The notes under the pieces are model-generated. The model made no database searches and had not been told where the DNA came from. It was given only the letters and a program-made list of their open reading frames with translations. Below, in pieces: positions 23,373-49,800 of a DNA stretch of 64,000 nt (the first letter of the stretch is position 1; every line of letters begins with the position of its first letter). The stretch spans positions 896,001 to 960,000 of the forward strand of contig CAXXHO010000005.1 in the NCBI GenBank assembly GCA_963667725.2, written 5' to 3'. This stretch comes from Treponemataceae bacterium. GTDB taxonomy: Bacteria > Spirochaetota > Spirochaetia > Treponematales > Rectinemataceae. A program made the position numbers and the translations under genes.

Positions 23373-24383
23373 ATGAACGCACGGAGATCCATCCTCATCG
23401 ATACGGATATAGCCTTCGGATCGCCGAAAGCCGACGCCGACGATGTTCTTGCCCTCATCCTCGCCATGTCCATCCCGGGACTGGAAATCGCGGCCATCTC
23501 GCCGGTAGGAGGGAATGTTTCGCCGGATAGGGCGAGCCGCAATCTGCACGGATTTCTGTCGCGGATCGGAATGTCTTCCATCCCCCATGCCTGGAGTTCG
23601 GCGATGCCTCTCGATCCGCGGTCGAGGGTAAAAGCCGAAGTGTGGGACAGGGCGGCCGAGGATATGATCGTAAGGCCTGAGGACGCGCCGAAGATCGATT
23701 CCGTCGACCTCATCCTGAAGACTCTCGCCGAGGCCACGGCGCCTCTGACGATAGTCGCCATAGGCCCTCTCACGAACCTCGGGATGGCCTTGGCGAAAGA
23801 GCCGGCTGTCGCCGCGAAAATCGGCGAGATCGTCATGATGGGCGGCTCCCGGGAGGTCAGGGGTCTGCACGGCTTGGCCGAGTTCAATATCTGGGTCGAC
23901 CCGGCGGCAGCCGCGATCGTATTCGGTTCAGGCTTGCCGATCAGGGTCTTCGGGCTCGATGTCACCAAAAAGCGCAAGGTGCTTCCTCAGGATCTCGCTC
24001 CCTGGGCTGTCTCCGATTCGCCTCTGGTCCGGGACATTCACGAGAGCGTCCTGGGCTTCATGCGGTACAAGGCAGAGCTGTTCGGCCAGGACTACCGCGT
24101 CGGGTATTTCCACGACGCTTTCCCCATCGCGTATTTTCACGATTCCGGCCTTTTCAGGTTCAACCCTTACGGGATAGAGGTCGGCCTCGACGACGATGAG
24201 GCCTATGGGGTGACGCGTATCGACTTCGGTCCCGCCGACGGCCCGCACCTATTCGCCGTCGATGTCGACGACGCCGCGCTGACGGAGTGGGTCATTCGAA
24301 CGATCGCGGAATCGCCGGCCTGCCTTGCAGGTCATGAAATACGCGTTCCGGGATCAAGGGATGCGGCTTCTCCCAATATATAA
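23373..24383 (+). CDS. Inosine-uridine preferring nucleoside hydrolase family
   Basis: DTD...DD, GGN, IGPLTNL, MGG, AEFNIWVDP, GLDVT, HD. Confidence 0.88.
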   Translation: MNARRSILIDTDIAFGSPKADADDVLALILAMSIPGLEIAAISPVGGNVSPDRASRNLHGFLSRIGMSSIPHAWSSAMPLDPRSRVKAEVWDRAAEDMIVRPEDAPKIDSVDLILKTLAEATAPLTIVAIGPLTNLGMALAKEPAVAAKIGEIVMMGGSREVRGLHGLAEFNIWVDPAAAAIVFGSGLPIRVFGLDVTKKRKVLPQDLAPWAVSDSPLVRDIHESVLGFMRYKAELFGQDYRVGYFHDAFPIAYFHDSGLFRFNPYGIEVGLDDDEAYGVTRIDFGPADGPHLFAVDVDDAALTEWVIRTIAESPACLAGHEIRVPGSRDAASPNI

Positions 24384-24533
24384 AGGTAACGGGCATCTAC
24401 CGGATCGTATTTAGCGCGTATTTTTTCCTCCGGCGGGATACCGGAGGAAGTAGGAGACAGGAACATTTAAATGTTTCATGGAGAGGCTTTAGTGCTAAAA
24501 AATAAAGAATCGTATTCTATTGACTGTCAGTAG

Positions 24534-24591
24534 GCAGAACACGTTGGCACCTTCGCAGGATGAACCTGCGGCAGGTTCAACTTGTTAGTGC
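24534..24591 (+). repeat. attC-like imperfect inverted repeat
   Basis: GCAGAAC...GTTAGTGC ends, internal arms GTTGGCACCT/AGGTTCAAC and TCGCAGG/CCTGCGG. Confidence 0.35.
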
Positions 24592-24794
24592 GAAAAGGGG
24601 TTCCCCCTTCACACATGAATGGCGGCAGGAAAATTAAGAATTCTCACCCTACCTCCAGAATGGCAACTATTCTTTGCAGTTCAAGAACCCCGTTATAGGC
24701 CTACCGAGAATTCAGCGCTTTACAAAGGCCAAGACTCTGAAGGATGTATAGGAGTTGTTGAGGGATGGATGAGTAAGGGCCAATTTAAAAAACT

Positions 24795-25676
24795 CTATTT
24801 TACGAGTGATTCGTAGCCGGATATTACGTCGAACAGCTCGGAATCGATGCCGCTCTGTCGCAATCGATGAAAGGAACGGTTGAGTTCTTCCATCAGCTCG
24901 TCGATGTTTTTTTCGGCGCGCCGCATCGCCGAAAGGCGGCTCGAATTTTCGCTTGCCAAGGATTCGGCGCATGCTCTAAACAGCGAGACGAAGAGGTATT
25001 CACGTATCAGCGCCCGTATAGTCAAAGTAGCGTTACCGATTATTTCGGGAAGGTTAGCGGTTGGCCAGGGCAATGCGGCTCGTTCGCTGAACCAGATTTC
25101 ATCCAGAGGCAAAAGACGTTGGCTGACTGGAGCGCAGGCAGTGCCGGATGTCGGACGATTGTAGAAGAGGTAGAACTCGTCGATTTCGCCGCGGTCGCGG
25201 CGGTTTTCGCAATCGTCGAGTATCCGGGCAATCAATGGGGTGATGGCTTTGACGGAATTCGGCACAGGAAACAGGGCGATCAGAGGCATGCCGGCATCAT
25301 CGAGCCGCGCTCGCGCCCTTTCGCCGACGACCCATGCGATTATTTTGCCCGGCATAGCGGCCAGCGTTTTAATCGCGAAATCGGCTATCTGGTCATTGAA
25401 TTGACCTACCATCCCTTGGTCGGAGCCAAAGACTATCGCGCTTATCGCTGCCGCCCTGCCTTGTGGCTTTGTGAGCGGGGTTGGCGGGAGGGCGTTTTTA
25501 CGCAAGCAGACGCTCAAACCCAACTCGATGGTACGTTGGTAATCGGCCAATGCCAATACCGATTTTTCATATTGTCCGATAGTGGATGCCGCAAGCGACT
25601 TCATCGTATGGACAACGGATTTCAGATCTCCAGCGCTGTCGATCTTCCGGCGAAGGCTTGCCGAAGTCTCACTCAT
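24795..25676 (-). CDS. atpG: N-ATPase gamma subunit
   Basis: [33 protein letters not shown]. Confidence 0.93.
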
Positions 25677-27225
25677 GATCTTCTTGACCTTCGCGTGCCT
25701 GTTGGGTTCCCGCAAGGGCTAGACGCGCAAGATCGAGTATCGCTTCGCGGTCTTCCTCGCTCAACAAGGCGGCGGTATCGAATCGCGCGATTATTTCCGC
25801 CGGAATCTTCGCCGCGGCTTCATGTACGGCATCCTCGGCGCCCTTTACCTTTTCGAAGGGTACAGGATCAAAGAGATTCGCGCCCAATGCCAAGAGGCTG
25901 GATATTTGCGCGGCCACCGAAACCGGGGCAAATTCGGGCTGTTTGAGAAAGGCGCGGATTCGCCGGCCATGCTCGATGATCCTGGCCGTATCCGCGTCTG
26001 GGTGAGCTCCGAAACGGGCAAAGGTTTCGAGTTCCTCGAATTGCGCATAGGCGAGTTTTAAATCTCCGACTGCCTCGCGATAGGCAGCCCTCTGAGCCTT
26101 GCCTCCCACGCGCGAGACTGATTTTCCCATGTCGACGGCGGGCAATATGCCCAATTCGAATAGTCTCGGTGAAAGGTATATCTGCCCGTCCGTAATGGAT
26201 ATCAGATTGGTCGGGATATACGCGGATATATTCTGGGCTTCAGTTTCTATTACGGGAAGGGCGGTGAGCGAACCGCCTCCGCGTTCTTCGCGGAGATGGG
26301 TAGCGCGTTCCAAGAGCCGTGAATGAATATAGAAGATGTCGCCCGGAAAGGCTTCGCGGCCGGGCGGACGGCGAAAGAGGAGGGAAAGTTCGCGATATGC
26401 GCGGGCATGCTGGGTCAAGTCGTCGTAGACTATCAGTACGTCCTCTCCGGCTTCCATAAAGTACTCTGCGATGCTGGTCGCGGCATAGGGAGCGATATAG
26501 GAAAGCCCAGGAGGGTCGTTGCCTTCTGCGACAACCACTACAGTGTAACCCAAGGCGCCATTTTCCCGCAGCACAGCCACGGCCTTCGCCACAGCCGAGG
26601 CGCGTTGGCCGATGGCGCAATAGACGCAGACGACACCCGTATCGCGCTGATTGAGGATGGTATCGATGGCGATGGCTGTCTTGCCCGTCTGGCGATCTCC
26701 CAGAATCAACTCGCGTTGCCCGCGCCCGATGGGGATCAGCGCATCGATGACCTTTATACCGGTCTGCAGGGGATCCACAACGGGGGCGCGGTCCATGATC
26801 GGCGGGGCGGGTCGCTCTATCGGCATCCGTACGGTGCTTGCCACAGGTCCCTTGCCGTCGAGAGGTCTGCCGAGAGGGTCTATGACGCGTCCGCGCAATC
26901 CGTCCCCAGCGGCGATGTCCATTACCCTACCCGTACGCGCTGCTTCATCGCCCACATGCAGTCGCCGGGATTCACCGAGCAGGATGACGCCGATTTCCTT
27001 CTCGTCCAGGTTGAACGCGACGCCGAATTCGCCACCGGGAAAAGAGATCAACTCTTCGAATCCCACGGAGGGAAGGCCTGATACCTTGACTACGCCAGAG
27101 GATACATCGGTGATTATGCCTATCTCCTGCGGCATCAAGAGCGGCGCATATTCCTTCCGCGCCTTTTCGATTCCCGCGAACGCGCGGTCGATACTTCGCT
27201 TCAAATCTACAACGTGGTCGCTCAT
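25669..27225 (-). CDS. atpA: N-ATPase alpha subunit
   Basis: [33 protein letters not shown]. Confidence 0.96.
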
Positions 27226-28010
27226 GGACGCTCATCCCTGGATTCGGCATTTGCTTCTTCCCCGACGTCACCGTCGACGATTTTTCCCATGGCTTTCAGG
27301 TAATTCGCAATGTTCCAGGCTACTTTTTGTCCGTTGGATGCCAATTCAATCCCGCCGATCAGTTCCGCCTCGACCAGGAACCTTAGCTTGATTTCCTCCT
27401 GGAAAGTCTCGTTGAGCGCCTTTTGTATTTCCTTTCGCTGTTTTGCCGTCAGTTCGAACGCGCTTCGGACTAGCGCTGGTTCAGATGCCGAGGCAATGGC
27501 TTTGGCGAATTTTTCCTTCGCCGGACCTTCCAGCGCGCGCACGCGGCGAATAAATACCGCGCACAGGCTGGCTTCCAGGCTGGTTGTGGAAAGATCGGCC
27601 AGGACTTGGCGCGAGATCGCAAATACCTCCTGTTGAGCCCGGCTTGTTATTTCGCGGTTCAAGCGCTTTGCGTCGGTCTTCAGGGCTGCCATATGTTTTG
27701 CATTCATGTCATCGGCGGATTTCTTGGCTTCCTCGATGAGACGCGCCCTTTCGGCGTCCGCCTCCAATTTAGCCTTCTTCAACAGCGCTGATCGCGCTTT
27801 ATCGAACTCATCGTTTTTATGCTGGAATTCATTGCGCTCTTTTTCCGCTTCGGCAATTTTCCCCCCGGCCTCCGCGATTTCGTCCGCGATTCGCTTTTCG
27901 CGTGTCGCGATGGCGGTAAGAATCGGTTTATAGAGGAAGCGTTTCAGCAGCAGCACCAGGACGACGAAATTGAGTATCTGGGCGACGATGGTGAACCAGT
28001 CGATGCTCAT
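27222..28010 (-). CDS. atpF: N-ATPase b subunit, long form with delta-like C-terminus
   Basis: [18 protein letters not shown], coiled coil, C-terminal ELIGGIEL. Confidence 0.92.
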
Positions 28011-28013
28011 GGG

Positions 28014-28295
28014 TCATTTTCCCGCGGCTTGAGCGATGGCAGAGTTCCAGAAGGGATTGGCGAAGATGAGGATCATGGCGACCACAAAACAATAAATGGC
28101 CGTGGACTCGATCATCGCCAAGCCGACGAACAGAGTCCTGGTTATGGTGGAGGACGCGTCCGGCTGTTGCGCCAAAGAAGTCAACGCGGTTGAAACAGCC
28201 TTCCCTTCTCCGAAAGCGGGAGCCATCGTGCCGATTGTGATGGCGAAGCCGGCGGTGATGATGGATACGATAGCGATAATAGTCATGCTGTCCAT
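28014..28295 (-). CDS. atpE: N-ATPase c subunit
   Basis: GEG, AQQPD, ESTAIY. Confidence 0.95.
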   Translation of the reverse strand: MDSMTIIAIVSIITAGFAITIGTMAPAFGEGKAVSTALTSLAQQPDASSTITRTLFVGLAMIESTAIYCFVVAMILIFANPFWNSAIAQAAGK

Positions 28296-28990
28296 GATTT
28301 CTCCTTTTCGACGGGTACCGTTCTTTTTGCATGGGTGGTGGCGGCGGCGATATACACCGCGGCCAGGATGCTGAAAATGTAAGCCTGCACCATCCCGGTC
28401 AGCAGGCCGAGCGCTGTCATGATGATGGGGAAAATAAAAGGCGTGATACTCACCAGAATACCGACGATCATGGAACCGCTCATCATATTGCCGAAGAGAC
28501 GAATGGCGAGGGCCAAGGTGCGGGAGATTTCGCTTATAATGTTGAACGGGAGCATGATGAATGTCGGCTTGACATACAATTTAAGGTAAGCGCCGAGCCC
28601 TTTCTCCCCGATGCCGAAAATGGGCACTGCCGCGAAAACGCATAGGGAAAGCGCCGCGGTGGTAGAAAGCGAGCCCGTTGGCGGTTCATAGCCGGGAACT
28701 ATCGTAAAGAAGCTTGCCGCGGCGATAAAGATAAAAAGCGTACCCAGAAAGCCAAGGTATTTTTCAGGCGTGCCGAGGCCAATTTCCTCTATCTGTTTTT
28801 CTATGGCCGTAACGATGATTTCGAGCATGTTCTGCCATCTGGAGCGAGAGTGTGTCACAGATAATTTCCGAGTGATCAATATCGAACCGACAACCAGGAC
28901 AACCATGATCGCCCACGTGAATAGGATGGTGGCATTGAGTTTCACGAATCCAAACTGCCAATAAATAATCTCGTCAGGGCTAAGTCGCAT
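28283..28990 (-). CDS. atpB: N-ATPase a subunit
   Basis: PPTGSLST, LAIRLFGN (essential Arg), QAYIF. Confidence 0.95.
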   Translation of the reverse strand: MRLSPDEIIYWQFGFVKLNATILFTWAIMVVLVVGSILITRKLSVTHSRSRWQNMLEIIVTAIEKQIEEIGLGTPEKYLGFLGTLFIFIAAASFFTIVPGYEPPTGSLSTTAALSLCVFAAVPIFGIGEKGLGAYLKLYVKPTFIMLPFNIISEISRTLALAIRLFGNMMSGSMIVGILVSITPFIFPIIMTALGLLTGMVQAYIFSILAAVYIAAATTHAKRTVPVEKEKSWTA

Positions 28991-29012
28991 GGAAAGCCTC
29001 TTTCAGCATCCG

Positions 29013-30161
29013 CTAAAACCGATAGGTCGCGGCAAGACCTGTTTTCGAAGGCATGCCTTCCGAAGCTACCACAAGGATTTCCCCGCCTTTTTCCGCGACC
29101 AAGTCGCTCAGATCGTCCAACGTGTCGTCCACGCGAGGGTCGGAAAGGTCCCCAAGTTTTATCTTTCCCGTCACCGGGTCGAGCCGGCCGGGGATCTGTT
29201 TCCCGCTTTCGATCAACAGCGTGGCGACCCGTCCAGCCAAAGCCGCCTTGGCAACCTCGGCAAGATTGTCGCTGCCAAGCCCCTTGGAATGGGCTTGCTG
29301 GTATTCATCGCCCGCGGCCTTCAGCCGAGCGGCATACTGGGGCTCAAAATGCTCCCATGCGCGGTCGCTGAGTTCTTCCATGGATACGGATTCGGGATTG
29401 AGCGTTATCCCCTCCGCGGCGAGATAGGGATTCTGGCTGATACGATGGAACATTGCCTGGTGTTCGCTCAATGCCGCGAGGATCAGTGGGAGACCTGATG
29501 GCCGCGAGTAATGTTCCAGTATTCCATGATCGATGACACGGAAGAAGCGCTCGGTATAGCTGTCTATTTCATCGCTTTTGCCGCCCTGCCCATGGTGCAT
29601 CGGCGTACTCTGCGAGCCTATGCCGCCATAGGAGGATACTGTTGAATGCGGCTCGGGCAACTCTTTGCCAAGCGCTTCGGTGATGGTGTGAGGTATCCCA
29701 GGGATGATATCGATTTCGTCAAGACCGTCGCGGTCGCCTTCGAATAGACGGATCGAATGACGGCTCACTCCCAGCACCTGGTATCGCCCCACGCCTTGCA
29801 GAAGCCGTTTGAGCGGCTTGGTATGGAAGCTGTCCGCCACCACGGTCAGCGCGGCAAGCGGGCGTTTTGTCTGAAAAACCTGAAATAACCCGGGCGCCGA
29901 GAATACCGCCAAGCCATCGAAGGTATGATTCCAAAACTCGGCATCGCTGACGAGTGCCTTGTATGGTTTTAATAGCGCGGCGATTTCAGTCGCCGAATAC
30001 TTTTCCTGGAGCGATTGCTCCAGTTCTTTGACCAAATTCCGAAACAGGATCGGATCCCGCTGATTTTCCGGGTAGTGGCGATGCGTTGGCTGGTACAGCG
30101 ATAGACAGGGTGGTTGTGCGCCAGTGAGTTTCGTGTTGAAGTCTCGGGTAAGTAAATTCAT
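29013..30161 (-). CDS. Bacterial aeRF1-like protein (baeRF family 3-like)
   Basis: CLSLYQPTHR, DGLAVF, FHTKPL, RLFEG, GRVATLLI, GGEILVV, GLAATYRF; ATGA overlap with atpR, AAGGAG RBS. Confidence 0.75.
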   Translation of the reverse strand: MNLLTRDFNTKLTGAQPPCLSLYQPTHRHYPENQRDPILFRNLVKELEQSLQEKYSATEIAALLKPYKALVSDAEFWNHTFDGLAVFSAPGLFQVFQTKRPLAALTVVADSFHTKPLKRLLQGVGRYQVLGVSRHSIRLFEGDRDGLDEIDIIPGIPHTITEALGKELPEPHSTVSSYGGIGSQSTPMHHGQGGKSDEIDSYTERFFRVIDHGILEHYSRPSGLPLILAALSEHQAMFHRISQNPYLAAEGITLNPESVSMEELSDRAWEHFEPQYAARLKAAGDEYQQAHSKGLGSDNLAEVAKAALAGRVATLLIESGKQIPGRLDPVTGKIKLGDLSDPRVDDTLDDLSDLVAEKGGEILVVASEGMPSKTGLAATYRF

Positions 30162-30490
30162 GGGTTAACTCCTTTTGAGATATTGGAAAGCGCCTTTTGG
30201 TCAGCCGGATTCTTGTCCGTGATAGGCGATTTCATCCGCCAGATCAGGGCGAACCGGGCCATGGTGAAACCGATCAGACATGTCAGCAGACGCTGCCAAT
30301 GGCCTGCCGATACAAAGAAAAATCCCGCGATGATAATGCCCGTTCGCAGGAGAAGACTGCCGGAAAACAGCAATGCCGGGTGTTTGGATGAAACACCTTT
30401 TTTCACCGTCCACCAGAGGCCTAAGAAAAAGGAGACACCCAGCGCTCCGCCTGCCAACCATGAAAGAAAAAGCGCGATAGTATCATTCAT
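30158..30490 (-). CDS. atpR: N-ATPase AtpR subunit
   Basis: FFLGLWWTV, SLLLR, GFTMAR: three TM helices with two Arg. Confidence 0.88.
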   Translation of the reverse strand: MNDTIALFLSWLAGGALGVSFFLGLWWTVKKGVSSKHPALLFSGSLLLRTGIIIAGFFFVSAGHWQRLLTCLIGFTMARFALIWRMKSPITDKNPADQKALSNISKGVNP

Positions 30491-30813
30491 TCTTATCTTC
30501 CTTGCTTTCCAGCATTTCCTTGTCTTCCTTAACGACCCAATGCCAGGCATTGAGGCAGCCGATCACAAGCCCGGCCACCAAGAGTGTCAATGTCCACACA
30601 TGGTTGCCTTGGCCGCGCTTGTCCAGCCAGAGACCGATCAGCGCGCCGAGCAGCGTGGGAATAACCACCGACCAGCCGATAAGTCCCATCATGCCCAAAC
30701 CGAACCAAACTCCCTTCGCGGAGTTCCGCCTTGCCTTGAGTTTTCGCGCCGCCTTCGCCTTGATTTCGGAGGCCAAAGTCCCTTTTTCCTCCAAGGGCTT
30801 GGCCGATTCTTTC

Positions 30814-30821
<8 letters not shown>
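30483..30821 (-). CDS. atpQ: N-ATPase AtpQ (AtpZ/AtpI-like)
   Basis: GLGMMGLIGWSVVIPTLLG, WLD, GCLNAWHW. Confidence 0.88.
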
Positions 30822-34989
<4,168 letters not shown>

Positions 34990-35026
34990 GATTTCCGGAT
35001 GCGCCCTCCTTACTGATTTTATAAAG

Positions 35027-36949
35027 CTGGCGTTGTACAGTGCGCGGTATAGAAAATCTTGCTAATACTCTATAAATAATAGAGTTATACGATTGCAGTC
35101 GAAAATCTTTTATACCGCAACAGGATCTCTTGCTACTGTAGCAAGAACTTTCTTTGGTAATTCAATAGTTAAGCGCTTGAAAATGTCCTTCGCCTCGTCG
35201 GAAATATCAGAGCAATACCAGAGGCTTACATTGTCGCTCTCAATAAGCCCTGCAGTAACATCGGACAGAACTTTTTCAATCTGGTACCACGACCGGTCCG
35301 CCATATTCTCTGCATACCGTACCAGCACCATGGCAAGCCAGCAAATAAGAATATGGCTTCGAATACGATCATCAAGTCGGTGGTATATGGGACGAATATC
35401 CAAGGTGTTTTTCATATCCTTGAATACCCGCTCTATGGCCCAGAGCTGCTTATAGCCGGCAACAATATCGGCAGCATCCAGCTTCATGCTGGACGTCGAC
35501 ACTAGAAACTTGCCATCAAGGAGTTCCTCTGAGGCTATCTTGGCGGTGTCGAGGTGCAAGACACCCTTCGTATCCTGCCTAATGTATCTGCCATAGGCGG
35601 AATGAGAGCGTAGCGCACACGCCGCTTTCGTGTGTGCTTTCCCCGTATACTGCGACAGTTCATCAAGCTTGCGCTTCGTAGCATCGACGATTTGTTCGCG
35701 TATGACATGGTCGCGCGTTTCGGCTTCCGGATTCTTGACGATGATGAATCGGCGCTCCGTGGCTTTCCCTGCATCGAGGACGACATCTTTAATCGCGAGG
35801 CCACTTTCCAGGATCCTGAATCGCCCTTTCCGGTGTAGGGCTTCTACCGCGGCGCCATCGGTACCAACGCGGAGCTTTTCGCCGATGATATAGTCACCGC
35901 ATTCCCGTAAAAGGATTCTTCTGTTGTCGGCACTATTGAATCCTGCATCTTGGACCATGACGACATGACCAAGATTCCACTGTCCTAGATCACCTTTCAC
36001 CTGCTCGACGATCGTCTGGTCGCTCGTGTTGCCCGGGAATACCCAGCAGCGAATAGGAATGCCGCTACGCGTCACCGCAAAGGCAATCGAAACCAAGGGT
36101 AGCTCGGGGTGCCCATCCTTGCTGTGGCCACGTTTTAAGAGTCCCGAGCTGGAAGCATCTTCATCGGTCTCGAAATAGGTGTTCGTCGTATCGAGGAAGA
36201 TGAGATCCACGTCGAGATGCGTATTCTTCGACACTTCGGTGAATATCTGCTTCTGGAGTTCCTCGTTCGACGCCACAAGAAGATCCATCGCCCTATAAAG
36301 ATTATGAACGTCTACCTCGTTAAGGTCTTTAATAAAGGCTTTCTTTGAAACCCAGTGCTCAAGAGAAAGCTTCGAACCCGGAGCGAGTATTCTTCCTGAA
36401 ACCATGGCAAAGCAGAGCCGTTCAACGGGTGTGGCGAACTGTCGTTCCTTAAGAAGCCCTTTGATAGCCTTGGCCATGCCGAGTCGATTCCACAAAGCAT
36501 CGAGAAGCCAGGTGCCGCCAAGCTCCCTGCTTGCGTGGAAGTCAAATTCGGCAAACGTCCCGGAAGAAGATTCGCCCAAGACCGCGGACAATGCCTTAAT
36601 GATCGCCTGGATGTAGGAAGGCTCGATCTGATCTTCCCGTCCGAGCTTCATAAGGACATTGGTCTTGGTCTTTCCTGTTTCCTTAACGCGGTAGTTGTGC
36701 ACAAGTTGAAGGTAAGTATAGGTACCGCCTTGAGCATTCTTTAGGGTACATTTTCGTACGTTCATTATACCGCTAATTATACAACATAGTGTTTTATCTG
36801 TAAAGTTTTATTTCGAATATTTATAGATATCTTATACCGCATTTGTATCATGCTTTTTGTACAGTCCGTTTTTAGTTATTTGTTGTCAGTATAATATATT
36901 AAGCTACTTTATTACTTGCTGCTTTATACCACACACTGTACAACGCCAG
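35027..36949 (-). mobile_element. IS1634-family insertion sequence, 1923 bp
   Basis: 25-bp terminal IRs (CTGGCGTTGTACAGTG[C/T]G[C/T]GGTATA, 2 mismatches) at 35027-35051 and 36925-36949; TAAAG target duplication at 35022-35026 and 36950-36954. Confidence 0.92.
35110..36765 (-). CDS. IS1634-family DDE transposase
   Basis: LYRAMD, FLDTT.YFE, GHSKD, FPGNTSD, QDAG, YKQLWAIERVFK, RPIYHR..RIRSH. Confidence 0.9.
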   Translation of the reverse strand: MNVRKCTLKNAQGGTYTYLQLVHNYRVKETGKTKTNVLMKLGREDQIEPSYIQAIIKALSAVLGESSSGTFAEFDFHASRELGGTWLLDALWNRLGMAKAIKGLLKERQFATPVERLCFAMVSGRILAPGSKLSLEHWVSKKAFIKDLNEVDVHNLYRAMDLLVASNEELQKQIFTEVSKNTHLDVDLIFLDTTNTYFETDEDASSSGLLKRGHSKDGHPELPLVSIAFAVTRSGIPIRCWVFPGNTSDQTIVEQVKGDLGQWNLGHVVMVQDAGFNSADNRRILLRECGDYIIGEKLRVGTDGAAVEALHRKGRFRILESGLAIKDVVLDAGKATERRFIIVKNPEAETRDHVIREQIVDATKRKLDELSQYTGKAHTKAACALRSHSAYGRYIRQDTKGVLHLDTAKIASEELLDGKFLVSTSSMKLDAADIVAGYKQLWAIERVFKDMKNTLDIRPIYHRLDDRIRSHILICWLAMVLVRYAENMADRSWYQIEKVLSDVTAGLIESDNVSLWYCSDISDEAKDIFKRLTIELPKKVLATVARDPVAV

Positions 36950-37478
36950 TAAAGGTACTGAAATTGGTTTCGCAATTCTATGTGCCAGCGAAAATAAGGC
37001 TTTTCTTTGCTTTCCCTGCCTTGTTTCGCTCGCAATGCCTCTTATTCAGCGGCTCGTTTTAAGCTTTAGCGATAAGTCCGTACGGGGGTTTGGGATGGCT
37101 ACATCCATACAACCGCGGCCGACAGAAGCCTTTTCTTTTAGGGCGATGAGGCGATGCCCCCTTCAGCCACGGCGTACCACCGCCTCATTGGATCGGAGCC
37201 TTGAAACGAATACCGCAGCGTTTTATGCTTGACACCTTCGACAGGCAGTACTAAAACTCTTTAATTGCTTATGATATTATAATATATCAAAATTATTATA
37301 TAGAAGGCTCTATGCAAAAAAAATGAAAAACTGTGGAAGACAGCCTACTGGCAAACAACAAAGCCACTGACAGTCACAAGAGCCGCGAAACACCGCTCTT
37401 TCAAGAGTTTGGACTCAACATGGGCATGACATCCGCCATCTCAATTGATTTCATCATCGAATAAGAAGGGAGAGCATA

Positions 37479-37949
37479 ATGAAAAAACTGATTAGGGCAA
37501 TTTTTATCGTACTGTTTTTCTGCCTCTTATGCGCCTGCGATCTCAACGTCAATAATGGGATCGCGTCTCTGCATATGACGTGGACTAAGCGGACTGCATC
37601 GGGAAGCCACTATTGGGCTTCCATCGCGAGTTCCTCGGACGGCGCGAAGCTCGCCGCGGTGGATAGAATGGGCGACATCTATACCTCGGCGGATTCAGGC
37701 GCGATGTGGCCTCAGCGGACTGTATCGGAAATCTATAGTTGGGCTTCCATCGCGAGTTCTTCGGACGGCGCGAAGCTCGCCGCGACGACTCTTTATGACT
37801 ACATCTATACCTCGGCGGATTCAGGCGCGACGTGGACGCAACAGTCTGAAGCGGGAAGCCGCTATTGGGCTTCCATCGCGAGTTCCTCGGACGGCGCGAG
37901 GCTCGCCGCGGTGGATGGTATGGGCTACATTTATACCTCGGGAAATTGA
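37479..37949 (+). CDS. Small lipoprotein with three 42-aa Asp-box/BNR-like repeats
   Basis: MKK-hydrophobic-LLCAC signal; WASIASSSDG.KLAA...IYTSADSG x3. Confidence 0.75.
   Translation: MKKLIRAIFIVLFFCLLCACDLNVNNGIASLHMTWTKRTASGSHYWASIASSSDGAKLAAVDRMGDIYTSADSGAMWPQRTVSEIYSWASIASSSDGAKLAATTLYDYIYTSADSGATWTQQSEAGSRYWASIASSSDGARLAAVDGMGYIYTSGN
37578..37940 (+). repeat. 126-bp intragenic tandem repeat (about 3 copies)
   Basis: TGGGCTTCCATCGCGAGTTC recurs at 37614, 37740 and 37866. Confidence 0.9.
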
Positions 37950-40737: not shown

Positions 40738-40870
40738 TATATAGAAATCATACCATAAAGATTTTATTTCATTATATTAAAAGAGACAGGCTCATCCCTC
40801 CGACGGACCGGAACGGAATAAGGGTTTCTATTCGGTGTCCCAGGCTGCCAATCATTCTTCTAGGATAAAT

Positions 40871-43800
40871 ATGAAAAAAGGTCTTCTCATTGGATATTTC
40901 CCCGCCCGGCAAGAAGCGATTATCGCGTCCAGGAAATTGCGAAAGCGGGGATTCCGATGCGTGGCAAGGATCAGCAAGAGCGCCGAAGGGGAGATCCAAA
41001 TCGGCAGACCCTTATTACGGCGCTGGCTTTTCGGCGTAAAGAGGAAATTGATAGAAAATCATGGACGCTGGCTCGTCGCTGGCGATACGGCGCTTATCCT
41101 CGTGGCTCCGATTGAAAAATTAAAAACACCGGCCAGGATTTTGCTGGAGAGAGCGGAGGCGATTCCGGCGGTTTTTGTTCTGCATCCCAAACGAGAAAGG
41201 CCAATCAGAGACCGGAGAGAACGTGGATTTGGGGGCTCATTGTTGAGCCCGAATCAACTTCATGAATACGCCTTGCGTCTGGCGGCCGAACACCGACTTG
41301 ACCCCAAGCCCTTGCGGAACACCGATCTGCTCAAACGGTTGGAACGTGGGCGTGAATGGATACAGCGGATATGCCGAGACCTGGGCGAAGCGTCACATCT
41401 GCAGCAAAGCGTGCCGCCGACCGCGGAATGGCTTCTGGACAACGAGTATATACTCGAAAGCAACGCGCGCGATGTACGCCTGAATCTTCCCTGGCCCTTT
41501 TACCGACAGCTGCCGGCTCTCGCGAACGAAAACGACCACGGTCTGCCGCGCGTTTGCAGTTTGGCGCATGAACTGGTCGCCCGTACCGAGCTGTTGGTGG
41601 ATGAACAGAATATCATGTCCTTTATAGAGGCCTATCAATCGGTGAGCTCTCTTTCGATTGGCGAACTATGGGCTGTTCCCCAGATGCTGCGAATGGCTCT
41701 CGTCGAGAGAATAGAAGAACTCGCCGGCCGAGCGCTCACCGAGCTGCGAGAGCAGGAAATCGCGGATTTCTGGGCGCATCGGCTCATCACCACCAATAGG
41801 CGCGAGCCGGGCCAACTGTTCGCGATCATGGCCGAATTGGCCAAAGCGTACCCCTCCCCAAGCCCCTACTTCGCCTCGCAATTGAATGATTATCTTTATG
41901 ACGAAGAAGCGGTGATGGCTCCGGTGAAGGGATGGCTTGAACGCGCCTTCCAAAAATCCTTGAATGAGATAATCCTGCGCGTGAAGAATCAGCAAACCAG
42001 GGATCAAATCTCCATCGGGAACGCTTTTACGAGTCTCCGTCTTCTCGCCGTGCTGGACTGGAAGGTATGTTTCGAGCGGCTCAGCCGGGTGGAAGCGATA
42101 CTCAAAAGGGATCCCGCCGGTATCTATTCCACCATGGATTTTCCCACGCGCGACCGCTATAGGCGGGCGATAGAAGATCTGCGCCGCGGGTCCGGTCTCG
42201 AAGAAGAAAAAATAGCTGAGCGTGTCGTTGAACTGGCTGCGAGCGCTCATGGAGACTCGGCGTTGGACGATCGATCGACTCATATCGGAACCTATTTGAT
42301 CGGCGAAAAGAGAGGCGAGCTGGCAAAATTGATCGGATGCCGGGAAGCTTTGCGCTTTCGCGCTTTACACTGGGCATATCGGCACCATTCGTCGGTTTAT
42401 TTTCTCGGTCTGACGTTCTTTTCGGTCGCGTTGATCATCCTTGCTCTGCGGGCGGGCGCTTTTGCCAGCGGCTTGGGGTTTTGGTTTTTATTCGCGGCGC
42501 TCCTGTTTCTTCCCGCGAGTCAGATATCACTCGAACTGTTGAATACAATTATAATCAAGCTTTTTCCGGTTCGAGCGCTGCCAAAACTCGATTTCGGCGA
42601 GGAGGGGATTCCCCCCTCCTGCCGAACCTTGGTTGTCGTCCCCATGATGCTGGTGGACAAAGCGACGATAAAAGGAGAAGTGGAAAAGCTCGAGATCCGA
42701 TATCTCGCCAACAAAGAGGATAATCTGCTCTTTTGTCTGTTCTCGGATTACAGCGACTCGTCGACCGCCCACTGCGGCACGGACGAGGGGCTGCTGCGAT
42801 ACGCGACGGAGAGTATCCAAGCGCTTAACCAGAGACATGGCGGTAGACGATTCCTGCTGCTGCACCGCGAGCGGAGGTGGAGCGATAGCGAGCGGAAATT
42901 CATCGGCTGGGAGCGCAAACGCGGGAAACTGGAAGAACTCAATAATCTCATCGTCGGCAATCGCCCTCGCGACGCGGAGTCTTTGGTGCGTCTGGGCGAT
43001 CCGGCTGTTCTGACCAGCCTGCGATTTGTCATTACCTTGGATAGCGACACGCAACTGCCTGCCAACGCGGCACGGAGGATGATAGAGACCTTGGCGCATC
43101 CGCTCAACAGGATTCGCTTTGATGAATCGGGCCGGATCCTGTCCGGTTATACCATAATTCAGCCGCGCGTCAGCCCTTCGCTTCCAAGCGCAAACGGCAC
43201 TCCTTTCAGCCGGCTCTTTTCTGACCCAATCGGCATAGATCCCTATACCAACACCGTCTCCGATGTATATCAGGATCTTTCCGGAGAAGGCTCCTATCAC
43301 GGGAAAGGCATCTATGACGCGCGAGCCTTCAATAAAATAGTATCCGGAAAATTCCCGGAGGCGCTGCTGCTCAGTCACGATCTGATCGAAGGAGCCCATG
43401 TCCGGGTGGGCTTCGCCTCCGATATCGAACTTTACGATGAGTTTCCGCAAGATTACCTGAGCTACGCAAAGCGGCAGCATCGATGGATCCGCGGCGATTG
43501 GCAGATTGCCGATTGGATGATGTCCCGAGTTCCCCAGGCCGACGGCGGCAAGGGCCCTAATCCACTCTCGTGGCTCGATCGATGGAAAATCTGCGACAAT
43601 CTGCGCCGCAGCCTGCTTCCCGTGGCGAGCCTTGCCCTCTTGATAAGCGCATGGCTTGTTTCCCCGCGGGCCGGCGTGGCCGCAAGCATGGTGGTCGCGG
43701 CACAGCTTTTCTTCCATTCCTTGGTGCAGCCATTCGCCTGGGCGGCCAGCGGAAGGGGATTCAAAAGGGCTTCGATCGAGAAAGCGGCGCATGATCTGCT

Positions 43801-46800
43801 CCGCGTGGTAATTGAGGCGGCCTTATTGCCCTTCCAGGCTTGGCTCGCGTTGGACGCCATCGGAAGGGTTTGGTATCGTCGCCGGATCTCGCATCGGGGA
43901 TTGCTGGAATGGACATCGGCCCAGGCGATGAATGTTAAGTCGCAGGCGAAGGTGAAAAAGTTCATCATCTCCATGAGTCTGGCGAGCCTTTTTGGCCTGT
44001 CCGCGGGCTGGGCTATCATGTTTGCCCGGCCTGTCAATTTTGGAATCGCCTCCCCATGGCTGCTGCTCTGGATACTCTCGCCGCTATTCGGCTGGCTGCT
44101 CAATCGTCGGCCTCACCTAATGGCGCCAAGAGAAGCGCTTCCCGAAGAAGATCGGCGATTTCTGAGAAACGTTGCGCGACGCACTTGGCGCTATTTCGCC
44201 GATTTTGTAAATGAGGAAAGCTCCTGGCTGCCGCCCGACAATTTTCAGGTCTTCTACCAAAAAGGACTGGCGTTTCGGACTAGTCCGACGAATATCGGCT
44301 TGTATTTGGTCAGCGCGTTGAGCGCTTTTGATTTTGGCTATCTCTCAGTGGATGAAGTCGCCAAAAAACTGACGAAGACGATGGAGACCATAGAAAAGCT
44401 TGAACGCCACGAAGGCCATCTTCTCAATTGGTATGATATCAAAACACTGGCTCCCCTCAATCCGCGCTATGTATCCACGGTGGATAGCGGAAATCTGCTC
44501 GGCTCGCTTTGGACCTTGAGACGCGGGCTGGAGTCGCTGGTAAACGCGCCGCTTTTGGATAAGAAAGCTCTTGCGGGCTTATATGACACCAATGAGGTGC
44601 TGCGGCAAGTGGGTCGGGAAGGGCAAATTTCCGGCGAAGAAACCTATGTTCTGGATGAACTAGAATTCTCGCTGGAATCTTCGCCGGCTTCGATTATAGA
44701 TATTCTGCGCATCGCGCGCAGGGTACGGAGCGATATTCCGCCGCTTGCCGAAAATGCTGAGACAGCGTATTGGAGCGCTCAAGTTCGGAGCCGCGCGGCG
44801 GCTTGGCTGGATGTCGCGGCTCGATATCTCGCCTGGATTGAAATTTTATCTGAAAAGACCGAAGAGGAGATCGCCGTTCTGGATTCGGGTGCCGCAAAGG
44901 CTTTTCGCGCGGCGCTCAATCAGGCGCCTTCTCTCAAGGAATTGGCGAGCGGAACCGCTGATTGCGCCACATTCCTCGAGACCATCCGGCTGAAAGCTCC
45001 CGCGAGTGACTCTTCCTTTCTGGATTGGATCGACCGCGTATCGAAAGCGCATGATCGAGCGAAATGGCTGGCAGGCGAGATGGTGGCGATAGTGGAGCGA
45101 CTGTCTCGCGCCTGCGGCGGACTTTCGGAATCGATGAATATGCGCTTCCTTTTCAATACCGAGCGGCGTCTGTTTTCCATCGGCTACAATGTTTCCGAAG
45201 GACGCCTCGACCATGCTTTTTACGATTTGCTGGCGAGCGAGGCGCGTTTGGGGAGCTTTGTGGCTATTGCCCGAGGGGATATTCACCCGGAGCATTGGTT
45301 TGCCATGGGTCGGCCTTATGGCGCGATCGGCCGGCGTCGGGTCCTTCTCAGTTGGACGGGAACGATGTTCGAATACCTGATGCCCCTGCTTTTTCAGAGA
45401 ACCTATAAGAATTCGCTGCTGGATAAGGCTGTCAAGGAGGCCGTCGCGATACAAATCGCCTTCGGGCGCAAGCATCACGTGCCCTGGGGGATATCGGAGT
45501 GCGCCTTCGGGGATCTCGATATCCAAAAAGCGTATCAATACCAGGCGTTCGGGGTACCGGAACTCGGGCTCAAGCGGGGCTTGGCGGAAAAAATTGTCGT
45601 GGCTCCTTATGCCTCGCTGCTGGCGGTGAGCTTCGTGCCGCGTGAGACGGTGCTGAACCTGAAGCGATTCGCCGAATTGGGGTTGTTGGGCGATTATGGT
45701 TATCTCGAATCTCTGGACTATAGCCGGCAATCGATGTATCCAATCGGGCGTGGGGTGATCGTGCGCGCCTACATGGCGCATCATCAAGGCATGAGTTTTT
45801 TGGCGCTGACGAATTTTCTTCAGAATGACTACTTGAAGCGGCAATTCCGGGCCGACCCGCGCATACGAATGGTCGAGCCTCTGCTTCAGGAACGGATTCC
45901 GATCATACCGCCGCTCCATCATATTACCACGCGCGAACGCGTTTCTTCGGTAGCGAGCGTCGGCGAGCCCAAACCCTCGGTCAGCCAGTTCGAAACCCCG
46001 CATACTTCGAGGCCTAAAACCCAATTACTCTGCAACGGCAACTATAGCCTTATGCTGACAAGCGTGGGCGGCGGTTATAGCCGTTGGGGAAATTTTGAGC
46101 TGACGCGCTGGAGATCGGATTCGACCCAGGATTCCTGGGGAACCTTCTGCTATATTCGCGATGTCGATTCAAGCCGATTATGGTGCGCTACGTATCAGCC
46201 GATCAGAGGTCATGTTGAACAGTTCAGCGCTAACTTTTCCCTAGACCGCGCCGTATTTCGGCGCGTCGATAATCAAATATTAACGGAAACGGAGATAATT
46301 GTCGCGCCGGAAGACGACGTGGAAATTCGTCGAATGACGCTGGTCAATCGATCGGGCTTCGATCGCCGGCTGGAACTGACGAGTTATATCGAACTGGCAT
46401 TGGCGCCGCACAACGTTGACAGGCAACATCCCGCGTTTAATAAAATGTTCATTCAGACCGAGGCGCTGCCTGAGCAGCAGGCGCTTTTGGCCTATCGCCG
46501 CCTCCGAAGCGCCATCGATCCGCCGATCTATGTCGCCCACCGATTCACTCTGGAGCCGACAGCCGGCGAATCCACCGATACACCTTTGCGCTTCGAAACC
46601 GACCGGCGTCGATTTATCGGTCGGGGACGCACCCTCGCCAACCCGATGGGCGCCGAAGAGGAATCTGGCGGCAGCCAAGGCTTTGTCTTGGATCCGATCC
46701 TCAGCCTGCGCAAGAGCATTACCTTGGCTCCCGGCAAACGGCTCCAAATATCCATGATTCTTGCCGTCGGAGCCTCGCGGGAGACGGTCCTCGCCTTGAT

Positions 46801-49800
46801 CGACAAGTACGGCTCTCCACAGGCGATCGACAGAGCGATGGAATTTGCCTGGGCATCGGCGCAGCTTGAGCTTCGTCTTCTGCGCATCCAAAACGACGAA
46901 GCGCGCAATTTCCAGCAACTGGCAAGCCATTTGCTGTACCCTCAGCCTCTTTTGCGAGCCGCTTCGCAGCGAATAGCGGAAAACCGAAAAGGCCAGTCGG
47001 GCTTGTGGACCTATGGCATTTCGGGCGACATGCCTATCGCCCTTGTGGTGATCGATGAAGCGCGAGATCTTGGGCTGGTTCGTCAAATGCTTCAGGCGCA
47101 CAGCTATTGGCGCATGCATGGGCTGCTGGCCGACCTTGTCATCCTCAACGAGGAATCCTCCGGCTACAATCAGCCAATGCGAGAAGAACTCCTGCATCTC
47201 ATACAAACGCTGGATCCCAATGCGGGAACCGGACGCTCCGGCGGGACCTTCCTGCTCAACGAGGATAAAATCCCTTCCGAAGACCTGACACTACTGCAAG
47301 CCGCGGCGAGTGTGGTTCTCGTCGCCGCCCGCGGGAATTTGACCCAGCAATTCGCCGTCCCGGCATTGGAGCTTCCCGCCTTGTCGGCTCCCATCGCCAG
47401 GAAACGGGATCCGCGCGATCCTTCGGCGGCGCTTCCCTTCATGGAGTTGCCTTTCTTTAACAGCTTGGGAGGATTTTCCCCGGATGGCCGGGAGTACGTC
47501 ATCTACCTTGGGCCAGGCATGAATACGCCCGCGCCCTGGACCAATGTCATGGCGAATCCTGGATTCGGCGCCATTATCAGCGAAACAGGCGCCGGCTTCA
47601 CATGGCAGGGCAACAGTCAGCGCAACCGACTCACCCAATGGTCGAATGACCCTGTCATGGATCCACCGCCGGAAGCGATTTTTCTCCGCGATGAGGATAC
47701 CGGTCTTTACTGGACTCCGACAGCGAGCCCCGTCCGCGAGGAATCCGCCTACCGGGCTCGGCATGGAGCCGGGTACAGCGTCTTCGAGCATAACAGCCAT
47801 GGCATCGAGCAGGAACTCACCGTCTTCGTGCCCTTGGACGATAAAGGGGGAGAACCCATCAAGCTGCAGAGACTGGTTCTGCGCAACGCCTCAGGTCGAT
47901 CGCGCAGACTATCGCTTACGTATTATGTGGAGCTGACGCTGGGCGAGTCGCGCGAGTCGTCGCAGATGCATGTCGCTACCACATGGGATGATGAAGCCCA
48001 GGCGATGCTGATTCGAAATCGCTACCATCCAGAGTATGGGGATCGGGTGGCTTTCGCGGCCGTGGGCGCTGCCGCCACGTCGTATACTGGCGATCGCACG
48101 GCGTTTATCGGGCGGAACAGAACGCTCGGCAATCCCGCGGCAATGGATCGCATACGGCTAGCCGGCAGGTCGGGAGCGGGCCTGGACCCCTGCGTGGCGA
48201 TACAGGTCATGCTGAAGCTGGCTCCAGGAGAAAGGGTTGAGGTTGCTTGTATGCTCGGCCAGGCTGAATCGGCGGAAAAGGCTCACGCTTTGGTTTCGAA
48301 GTATCGGGATCCCCATGCGGTGGAGGCATCTTTGCGGGAAACGCAGGCATGGTGGGACTCCCGGCTCGGGGTGGTCCAGGCTCATACTCCCGAACCTGCC
48401 GTTGACCTTATGATCAATCGTTGGTTGTTGTACCAGAGCCTAAGTTGCCGGGTCTGGGGGCGTTCCGGTTTTTACCAGTCCGGCGGCGCTTTTGGCTTCC
48501 GCGATCAATTGCAGGACGTTATGGCCCTGCTGTACGCGTATCCGGGCCTGGCGCGGGCCCATATTCTTCTGGCCGCCAGCCGACAGTTCAAGGAAGGCGA
48601 TGTCCAGCACTGGTGGCATCCGCCGAGCGGCGCGGGAATCCGTTCACGGATTTCCGATGATCTTTTATGGCTTCCATATGTGGTTGCGCGTTACATAAGC
48701 GTCACCGCGGACGCGAATATTCTCAATGAGCTTGTTCCTTTCATCGAAGCGCCGCTTTTGGCGGATGGACAGCTTGAAAGCTTTCAGTCGCCCAACGTTT
48801 CCTCCGAACAGGCCCCGCTTTTTGAGCATTGCCGGCGGGCGCTCGCGCACAGCCAGCGCTTCGGCGTTCATGGTCTGCCGCTCATGGGAACGGGGGACTG
48901 GAATGACGCGATGAACCTTGTGGGCGCGAAGGGAAAGGGTGAAAGTGTCTGGCTGGCATGGTTCATGATCGATGTATTGAAGGGAATGGTCGAGCTTTCC
49001 GCCTTGGCTGGCCATCAGGAGCTGGGCCAGTCCTATGCGAAAGAGCGAAGCGCGTTGATCGAGCATGTCGAAAGTTTTGCCTGGGACGGTGAGTGGTATG
49101 TGCGGGCTACCTTTGATGATGGGACGCTTCTGGGGGCTTCGGGGAATTCGGAGGCGCGAATCGATTCCCTGCCGCAATCCTGGGCCGCTTTGAGCGGAGC
49201 CGGCGACGAGGAAAGGACGGCGAAGGCACTTGAAGCGGCATGGAAGCACCTTGTTCACGAAGATGAAAAACTGGTACAGCTTTTCACGCCGCCTTTCGAT
49301 ACTTCGGAGCCATCCCCAGGTTATATCAATGGCTATCCGCCAGGGGTGCGCGAAAACGGCGGACAGTATACACATGCCGCGGTCTGGCTGGCCATGGCAA
49401 TGGCCAGGCGCGGTGATGGAACGAGGGCGGCGGAAATTTTGCGCATGCTCAATCCGATCGAGCACGCGCATGAACCGAAGGCCGTCTGGCGCTATGGGGT
49501 TGAACCTTATGTCGTCGCGGCGGATATTTATCGCCTACAGGGACGGATTGGACAGGGTGGCTGGTCTTGGTATACAGGCTCGGCGGCATGGATGTACCGC
49601 GCCTGGGTCGAGGAAATCCTTGGCCTGAAGATTCACGGCGGAACGATGGAGATCAACCCGGTCATTCCCGGCTGGTGGGATGGATTCCAGATGACCTATC
49701 GTCATGGTGAAGTCATATATGAAATTCATGTCGAAAATCCCGACCATCGTGAGCGGGGAGTTTCCTTTGTGGATATGGACGGGGCGCGCATCAAAGATGG

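Follow-up and report, generated by a model that had tools for sequence, protein, structure and literature searches.

In this study we analyzed a gene, here called X, that lies between atpR and atpB of an N-ATPase operon in a stretch of 64,000 nucleotides (the window) from a Treponemataceae bacterium (assembly GCA_963667725.2, contig CAXXHO010000005.1, positions 896,001 to 960,000). We consider that X probably, with a likelihood of roughly 60%, encodes a Balon-type ribosome hibernation factor and is integrated in a Na+-type N-ATPase unit that was obtained by horizontal transfer. The protein belongs to the same family and has the same fold as Balon (Helena-Bueno et al. 2024, PMC10901736) and lacks the release-factor motifs. 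Moreover, its gene is tightly packed into an operon of foreign origin, and its relatives are recurrently associated with one N-ATPase subclade in several phyla.

Family and predicted fold of X

X matched PF18845 (baeRF_family3) with an E value of 4.8e-47 and 160.9 bits against a cut-off of 31.5, over residues 126–311 and the complete profile (1–168 of 168), in agreement with an earlier note on this DNA that had recognised the family by eye. A protein of a Moraxella plasmid scored 519 bits with NF052287, the Balon equivalog model, and also matched the Pfam family baeRF_family3, so Balon and X belong to one Pfam family. When the PDB sequences were searched with phmmer, Balon was the sole match (8rd8_B, E 1.5e-15, residues 17–378 of X against 14–365). 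An AlphaFold2 model of X, based on 104 sequences, had a mean predicted local distance difference test score (pLDDT) of 91.7 and a predicted template modelling score (pTM) of 0.81, and low confidence was confined to residues ~170–195. The model keeps the three-domain aeRF1 fold. In a Foldseek search of the PDB its five best matches were three Balon chains and two Msmeg1130 chains (E 8.6e-25 to 7.5e-17, template modelling (TM) scores 0.66–0.72), while aRF1, eRF1 and Pelota ranked below them with TM scores of 0.2–0.5. The structural comparison with Balon, aRF1 and Pelota proposed in the earlier note thus gave a strong match to the aeRF1 fold, with Balon the best, and not the missing fold that would have spoken against it.

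The motifs agree with this placement. GGQ, NIKS and NIKL were all absent from the 382 amino acids of X in a string search, and HHGQGG, which starts at residue 189, lies in a middle-domain loop just ahead of the long helix; both the lack of GGQ and the position of HHGQGG near the GGQ loop had been noted correctly. The loop in the GGQ position (residues ~170–195, with PMHHGQGGK and a pLDDT of 52–57) is similar to the lasso loop of Balon in length but unlike it in sequence. Across 25 sequences of the clade the loop conforms to M-x-H-G-[HQ]-G-G-K, the variable position being H in 18 sequences and Q in 7. R205, F207 and R208, on the Arg-rich helix after the loop, are invariant in 25 sequences, and this helix fits a feature described for the baeRF-1 clade in the available text of Burroughs and Aravind 2019 (PMC6514570). 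In the C domain of the model, a beta-hairpin of residues 324–336 (strands 324–327 and 334–336) aligns with the region of the Balon insert.

X can therefore be compared with three known groups of proteins. First, Balon (Psychrobacter urativorans AOC03_06830; Msmeg1130 and Rv2629), as far as the main text of its paper describes it (PMC10901736), shares with X the baeRF_family3 domain, the three-domain fold and a similar length; both are without GGQ and NIKS, and at the place of the EF-Tu-binding hairpin insert in the C domain of Balon the model of X has a candidate beta-hairpin. They differ in that their identity is only ~19% in the structural alignment and in that X falls below the equivalog cut-off, has YP in place of HP at the aligned N-domain position and carries a clade-specific loop. 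Second, several features reported for the baeRF-1 clade in the main text of PMC6514570 also apply to X: the family definition, a missing catalytic Gln, a conserved basic helix behind the loop, a two-strand insert in the Pelota-like domain and lateral spread. Third, aeRF1 and Pelota/Dom34 have the three-domain architecture of A-site factors like X, but X has neither NIKS nor GGQ, matches them with the weaker TM scores and has a bacterial host.

The N-ATPase operon and its origin

With the NCBIfam “alternate F1F0” models, the six subunits beta, a, c, b, alpha and gamma each exceeded the cut-off, and on the strength of the NCBIfam and Pfam subunit matches (Table 1) the order atpD-C-Q-R-X-B-E-F-A-G is real. 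The operon contains no atpH, and its order is otherwise that of a canonical N-ATPase, interrupted by X alone. The 382-residue gene between atpR and atpB of an intact operon, first noticed in the reading frames, was thus borne out by the subunit models. In the available text of Dibrova, Galperin and Mulkidjanian 2010 (PMC2881411), N-ATPase operons have the order atpDCQRBEFAG, and the operon of the window shares with them this order, atpR, atpQ and the long b subunit. The two are also alike in having no delta subunit, a c subunit with Glu and ESTxxY, a second rotary ATPase in the genome and a history of lateral transfer; the window differs in the extra gene between atpR and atpB. A Glu in helix 1 together with ESTxxY is given there as the signature of Na+-binding N-ATPase c subunits, and the corresponding residues of AtpE, E30 and E63-S-T-A-I-Y68, make up this Na+-ligand set.

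X is closely joined to the genes on both sides. Its start codon (ATG, 30161–30159) overlaps the stop codon of atpR (TGA, 30160–30158) as ATGA, an AAGGAG of its own stands at 30174–30169, 7 nt 5' of the ATG, and its stop codon (TAG, 29015–29013) is followed by a spacer of 22 nt and the atpB ATG at 28990. The overlap, the ribosome-binding motif and the spacer had each been described before and were found on the sequence. With each gene taken to start at the first Met supported by its family model, the ten junctions from xfp, the phosphoketolase gene, to atpG measure +2, -11, -8, -8, -4, +22, -13, +3, -4 and -8 nt. Because all of them fall between -13 and +22 nt, xfp-atpDCQR-X-atpBEFAG is likely an eleven-gene unit, of which xfp is probably the first gene of the transcription unit. 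The overlapping or nearly touching junctions also bear out the earlier view that X is integrated in the operon. Identical gene order, including the phosphoketolase, was found on L084, a metagenome contig of 99% identity from a separate assembly, and the X gene order is also present on a 9.2-kb contig of a public run, which possibly is the source sample of the genome.

The block has no counterpart among the relatives of this bacterium. Searches for X in 60 relatives from its genus, family and order gave no match, and at E 1e-40 another 300 genomes of the phylum gave none either; the N-ATPase a subunit was above the cut-off in 0 of the 60 relatives. Close to the upstream end of the xfp/N-ATPase block, but outside the operon, there is an IS4-type transposase; the GC content falls to 0.42–0.47 around it, and it marks the edge of the acquired DNA. 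The absence from relatives, the transposase and the 99% identical L084 contig together indicate that the block was acquired laterally and is not an assembly artefact. No baeRF3 copy other than X was found in the genome, and one HPF gene is located elsewhere. The genome also encodes two A subunits of V/A-type ATPases (contig C3, 947463–949196 and 1077907–1079610), which makes the N-ATPase accessory here; in the available text of PMC2881411 the N-ATPase is “always the second” rotary ATPase. As a side observation, the genome has no F-type a subunit besides that of the N-ATPase, and an ordinary F-type a subunit is present in 14 of 36 genomes of the same family.

Few regulatory signals were recognised around X. 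A scan for promoter and terminator consensus sequences gave counts no higher than expected from shuffled sequence, the base composition showed no break at X, and an Rfam scan of 24000–37500 at E up to 1 revealed no riboswitch or leader, with a lone chance-level match to 5.8S. One run is labelled metatranscriptomic, although its RNA status is a guess, and eight of its short contigs fall on the unit: one lies within X (29114–29357), others span xfp–atpD, atpF–atpA and atpB–atpE–atpF, and none spans atpR–X or X–atpB. We did not count them as evidence of transcription.

Table 1. Genes of the X/N-ATPase unit and the adjoining transposase in the window.
Feature	Position	Strand	Evidence
IS4-type DDE transposase	35110–36765	-	PF01609 E 8.2e-13
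phosphoketolase (xfp)	32599–34989	-	XFP_N, XFP and XFP_C domains
atpD (beta)	31193–32596	-	TIGR03305 856.6 bits
atpC (epsilon)	30814–31203	-	TIGR03166 171.4 bits, above cut-off
atpQ	30483–30821	-	PF09527; TIGR02230 131 bits
atpR, 110 aa from the Met supported by the family model	30158–30490	-	PF12966 E 7e-26; TIGR03165
X, Balon-like baeRF family-3 gene, 382 aa	29013–30161	-	open reading frame list; PF18845
atpB (a subunit)	28283–28990	-	TIGR03306 365.7 bits
atpE (c subunit)	28014–28295	-	TIGR03322 153.8 bits
atpF (long b subunit, delta-like C-terminal part)	27222–28010	-	TIGR03321 286.3 bits; OSCP match at residues 177–241
atpA (alpha)	25669–27225	-	TIGR03324 869.8 bits
atpG (gamma), final gene of the unit	24795–25676	-	TIGR03323 389.2 bits

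The best sigma-70-like site of the scanned region (36776–36804, 11 of 12 matches) precedes the IS4-type transposase.

Recurrence of X beside N-ATPase genes

The family of X is large. Among 7999 scored candidates 4636 proteins were obtained at E <= 1e-5, and a library clustered at 50% contained 7575 cluster representatives at E <= 0.001; the closest homologues (P0001–P0006) are 68–90% identical to X. When one genome per species was scanned, 598 stretches matched, and 569 relatives were confirmed. We studied the best 80 loci, which are 53–65% identical to X and come from more than ten phyla, and annotated them by tblastn with the proteins of the window operon. As a result, N-ATPase genes or their remnants were found on the strand of X at 19 of the 80 loci, or at 12 of 45 when only loci flanked by 2 kb or more on each side are counted. 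These 19 loci can be divided into four types. First, X is placed between atpA and atpG at 13 loci (L002, L005, L008, L011, L013, L015, L023, L032, L035, L041, L056, L058 and L068), although the view is partial in L056, which shows atpG alone, and in L058, which shows atpA alone. Second, X lies between atpD and atpC in L072. Third, it stands upstream of atpC-Q-R-B in L039, with BrkB-like, polyphosphate kinase 2 (PPK2) and NhaA genes between X and the pump genes. Fourth, X is accompanied only by fragments of atpG or atpA in L006, L021, L042 and L067. The earlier note would have abandoned its idea had the insertion been unique to this genome and not co-transcribed; the association with N-ATPase genes does recur, while the exact site between atpR and atpB was seen only in the window and L084 among the loci compared.

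The most constant neighbour of X is another one. An HPF/RaiA-family gene (PF02482, 105–125 aa) directly follows X at 52 of the 80 loci, or at 50 of the 72 where 450 nt or more of downstream sequence is available; like the window, L005 and L056 have no HPF gene after X. When the open reading frames (ORFs) next to X were clustered and ranked, HPF came first and the N-ATPase subunits second, with PPK2, DUF2254, BrkB-like and P-type ATPase genes lower. In L002, L011 and L023 a copy of the atpG start of ~33 codons precedes X and the full atpG comes after HPF, and in L088 and L090 fragments of atpD and atpG are found near X-HPF. Such short atp fragments resemble scars left by insertion or by decay of the operon. 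In L056 (1523–3106) X appears to be joined in frame to an upstream reading frame as an ORF of 527 aa, which may be an assembly or start-codon artefact with undetermined bases nearby.

The survey of N-ATPase operons for X, also suggested in the earlier note, was then made in the reverse direction. TIGR03306, the model of the a subunit, was searched in three phylum samples, with the three seed genomes included in the counts. The a subunit exceeded the cut-off in 7 of 201 genomes in the sample for the Nitrospirota locus, in 23 of 301 in that for the Planctomycetota locus and in 8 of 401 in that for the Pseudomonadota locus. Since only 38 of the 903 sampled genomes have an N-ATPase, chance adjacency of X and N-ATPase genes is negligible. 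After removal of the seeds, 39 N-ATPase places were studied, of which 6 + 24 + 7 were above the cut-off and 2 slightly below it. X was found at two of them, neither at the atpR–atpB position: in L102, from the same contig as L015, it lies between atpA and atpG, and in L104 the X-HPF pair is 2.1 kb upstream of atpD.

We also compared the trees of X and of AtpA. Both trees are quick ones in which close kin share labels, so the row counts below should be read with this in mind. The X tree was made with IQ-TREE from 98 X proteins, with L088 omitted for its broken gene. In this tree, 22 of the 23 N-ATPase-linked rows fall on one side of a branch with support 97 (56 rows), in three subclades: the atpA–atpG set, a verrucomicrobial set with the atpD–atpC case and one upstream case, and the window with L084. 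The window and L084 belong to a group with support 96 together with three loci without visible pump genes, one of them with very short flanks, and two distant representatives. The AtpA tree holds 47 rows, four rows with short AtpA matches having been omitted. A single clade of 25 rows with support 100 takes in all 14 X-linked operons, and the remaining 22 rows contain none. The window and L072 form a group separate from the atpA–atpG set (support 86). The X and AtpA trees agree in outline. Either the association is old and belongs to one N-ATPase lineage, in which X was later moved and lost, or it arose a few times in that lineage.

The arrangement is also new with respect to the descriptions that we consulted. 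RaiA is the most frequent neighbour of Balon according to the main text of PMC10901736, and relatives of X likewise adjoin HPF/RaiA. The same main text names RaiA, Hsp20, osmotic, acid, drug and RtcB genes as neighbours of Balon and contains “ATPase” and “ATP synthase” 0 times, in contrast to the context of X, which is an N-ATPase operon. The main text on baeRF-1 (PMC6514570) likewise gives an association with HPF only; “ATP synthase” and “F1F0” occur in it 0 times, and its seven mentions of “ATPase” refer to ABC and AAA+ proteins. The available text of PMC2881411 reports inserts of one and two unnamed genes in cyanobacterial N-ATPase operons, the two-gene insert being that of Cyanothece. The one-gene insert, in Acaryochloris marina pREB4 (L142, 4877–6106), is now annotated in RefSeq as a cation:proton antiporter and lies between atpQ and atpR with overlapping junctions. 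We considered this insert as a relative of X and rejected it, as pREB4 is absent from the tblastn matches of X. In the literature searched, where the combination of “N-type ATPase” and “ribosome” was judged by titles and the starts of abstracts, no work joining N-ATPases with ribosome hibernation was found, which is consistent with the suggestion in the earlier note that the arrangement had not been described.

Proposed function and rival explanations

Translation is the largest consumer of ATP and GTP in the cell. On the hibernation reading, xfp-atpDCQR-X-atpBEFAG would form one transcript and X would be made whenever the pump is made. By analogy with Balon, which under stress fills the A site of ribosomes whether they are vacant or translating, X may enter the ribosomal A site without contact to mRNA, keep the peptidyl-transferase centre inert and engage EF-Tu(GDP). 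Translation would then be damped and the ribosomes preserved while the ATP is spent on pumping out ions during salt, pH or energy stress; in the available text of Schulz et al. (PMC5376962) the role of an ATP-driven pump is proposed for an N-ATPase. In most relatives the short HPF/RaiA encoded after X would fill the decoding site at the same time, while here the sole HPF is encoded elsewhere. X should also work without the pump, because most X genes are away from pumps and the X-HPF pair outlives decayed operons, and we therefore regard shared regulation as the more likely nature of the link between X and the N-ATPase, rather than a physical partnership.

Several results weigh against this reading. 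At the level of the protein, X scored 170.7 bits with the Balon equivalog model NF052287 (profile 9–361 of 361), under the cut-off of 330, as did two members of its clade, L008 and L069 (169 and 180 bits), and on this score X was placed in a sister subfamily of Balon. The Balon paper, in its main text, speaks of an HP motif without residue numbers, and our comparison used the only HP dipeptide of the aligned chain: this dipeptide (THREHPAN) aligns with THRHYPEN of X, with YP for HP, and across 25 rows the invariant Pro is preceded by H (16 rows), Y (6 rows) or R (3 rows). As the clade also conserves a loop motif that Balon does not have, the contact of X with the ribosome could differ from that of Balon. 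At the level of the operon, a weak terminator-like hairpin stands at the 3' end of X (29040–29024), and none of the sequencing runs on record as RNA contains the X/N-ATPase stretch. The HPF partner is missing from the window, where tblastn with the partner of L008 gave no match; against the whole genome its best E value was 0.55. At the level of the family, 61 of the 80 X loci have no N-ATPase gene, the position between atpR and atpB was encountered at none of the 80 closest loci and only in the window and the 99% identical L084, and only 2 of the 39 sampled N-ATPase places have X, so X is a minority feature of N-ATPase operons. Remnants of atpG and atpA flank intact X-HPF pairs in L006, L021, L042 and L067, an indication that X survives the loss of the pump.

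These last results lead to the first rival explanation, that X, or X-HPF, is a passenger of a mobile N-ATPase operon and that the association reflects shared mobility or descent instead of selection for co-expression. X and the N-ATPase are both patchy and laterally spread, with X proteins of 55–65% identity spread over more than ten phyla; the 60 relatives lack the block and the 300 genomes of the phylum lack X, and a transposase adjoins the block. As one AtpA clade holds all X-linked operons, a few captures may explain many loci, and the presence of X in only 2 of the 13 reverse-survey rows of that clade implies frequent loss; moreover, X-HPF persists without the pump. Nevertheless, we consider this explanation rather unlikely. 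X has been inserted at three points (atpR–atpB, atpA–atpG and atpD–atpC) and placed upstream as well, always with the strand kept, the overlap of start and stop codons is preserved in the window operon, and mobile-element genes accompany X in none of the operons read. A neutral insert of 1.1 kb among membrane-sector genes, which require balanced expression, would be expected to be purged or to decay, but X is intact and conserved.

According to a second and less probable explanation, X would clear ribosomes stalled by ionic stress or on the mRNAs of the operon's own membrane proteins, either as a factor of rescue or quality control like Pelota or as a non-canonical peptidyl-tRNA hydrolase. Other members of the aeRF1 superfamily terminate or rescue, and Burroughs and Aravind considered such a role for baeRF-1 in the main text of PMC6514570. 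The HG[HQ]GGK motif is strongly conserved in the clade, unlike the loops of most baeRF-1 families, which are described there as poorly conserved, and X of the window has a Gln in the loop (HHGQGG). However, this Gln is variable, with Q in only 7 of the 25 rows and H in the remaining 18, and no GGQ is present, the best matches in structure and sequence are hibernation factors and not Pelota or aRF1, and the constant HPF neighbour of the relatives points to dormancy. The idea that X has been recruited from the ribosome to the N-ATPase, to assist in assembly or serve as a regulatory subunit, would suit the place of X among the membrane-sector genes (atpQ, atpR and atpB), its start overlapping the atpR stop and the acceptance of related inserts such as the antiporter of A. 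marina pREB4 by N-ATPase operons, but it is very improbable given the 61 X loci without the pump and the 37 of 39 pump places without X, the position of X between F1 genes in other operons and the retention of all three ribosome-factor domains.

The neighbourhood beyond the pump suggests an extension of the hibernation reading. The phosphoketolase stop codon is 2 nt before the ATG of atpD in the window, the window and L084 share this phosphoketolase upstream of atpD, and a whole or fragmentary phosphoketolase gene lies upstream of atpD on the same strand at 8 of the 39 N-ATPase places (L101, L102, L103, L104, L109, L123, L126 and L132), L104 retaining the C-terminal fragment only. This xfp/N-ATPase neighbourhood did not turn up in the literature searches, none of which was aimed at xfp. 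PPK2 (PF03976) was found in 11 of 129 stretches searched. It directly follows atpG in L002 (10498–11352), L011 (11002–11856), L023 (12749–13603) and L068 (3730–4587), and it lies between X-HPF and pump genes in some loci (L039, L088 and L090). In L088–L090 the X-HPF pair is followed by half of a phosphoketolase, and in L088 and L090 then by PPK2 and fragments of atpD and atpG. The recurrence of xfp and PPK2 suggests a wider energy-maintenance module moving between phyla.

On this basis one mobile N-ATPase subclade might form the centre of a “maintenance-energy island” serving cells that do not grow, a tentative idea that we hold to be possible but doubtful. Phosphoketolase and PPK2 would supply ATP without respiration, the N-ATPase would spend it on holding ion gradients, and the Balon-like factor, usually with a short HPF, would silence and preserve the ribosomes. 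Hibernation factors would have been recruited repeatedly into the pump operon because both processes must switch on together, and the dependence of Balon binding on EF-Tu(GDP) could tie this switch to a falling energy charge. If true, the role of N-ATPases would be ion homeostasis in dormancy and not salt tolerance in growth. Apart from this idea, because the operon holds the only Balon-like gene of this genome, the hibernation pathway would be under the control of the pump, and the genome offers a clean natural test case for pump-linked hibernation. The genetic link between Balon-type factors, described in 2024, and N-ATPases, described in 2010, gives both fields a concrete test.

Two minor observations remain. 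On Moraxella osloensis plasmid p1 (L140, 3944–8086) the Balon equivalog gene precedes an alpha/beta hydrolase gene and then that of the Na+/H+ antiporter NhaA, all on one strand, a further case of a Balon gene next to a transporter of sodium and protons. In the window itself, an ORF of 3027 aa is present at 40835–49918 on the plus strand.

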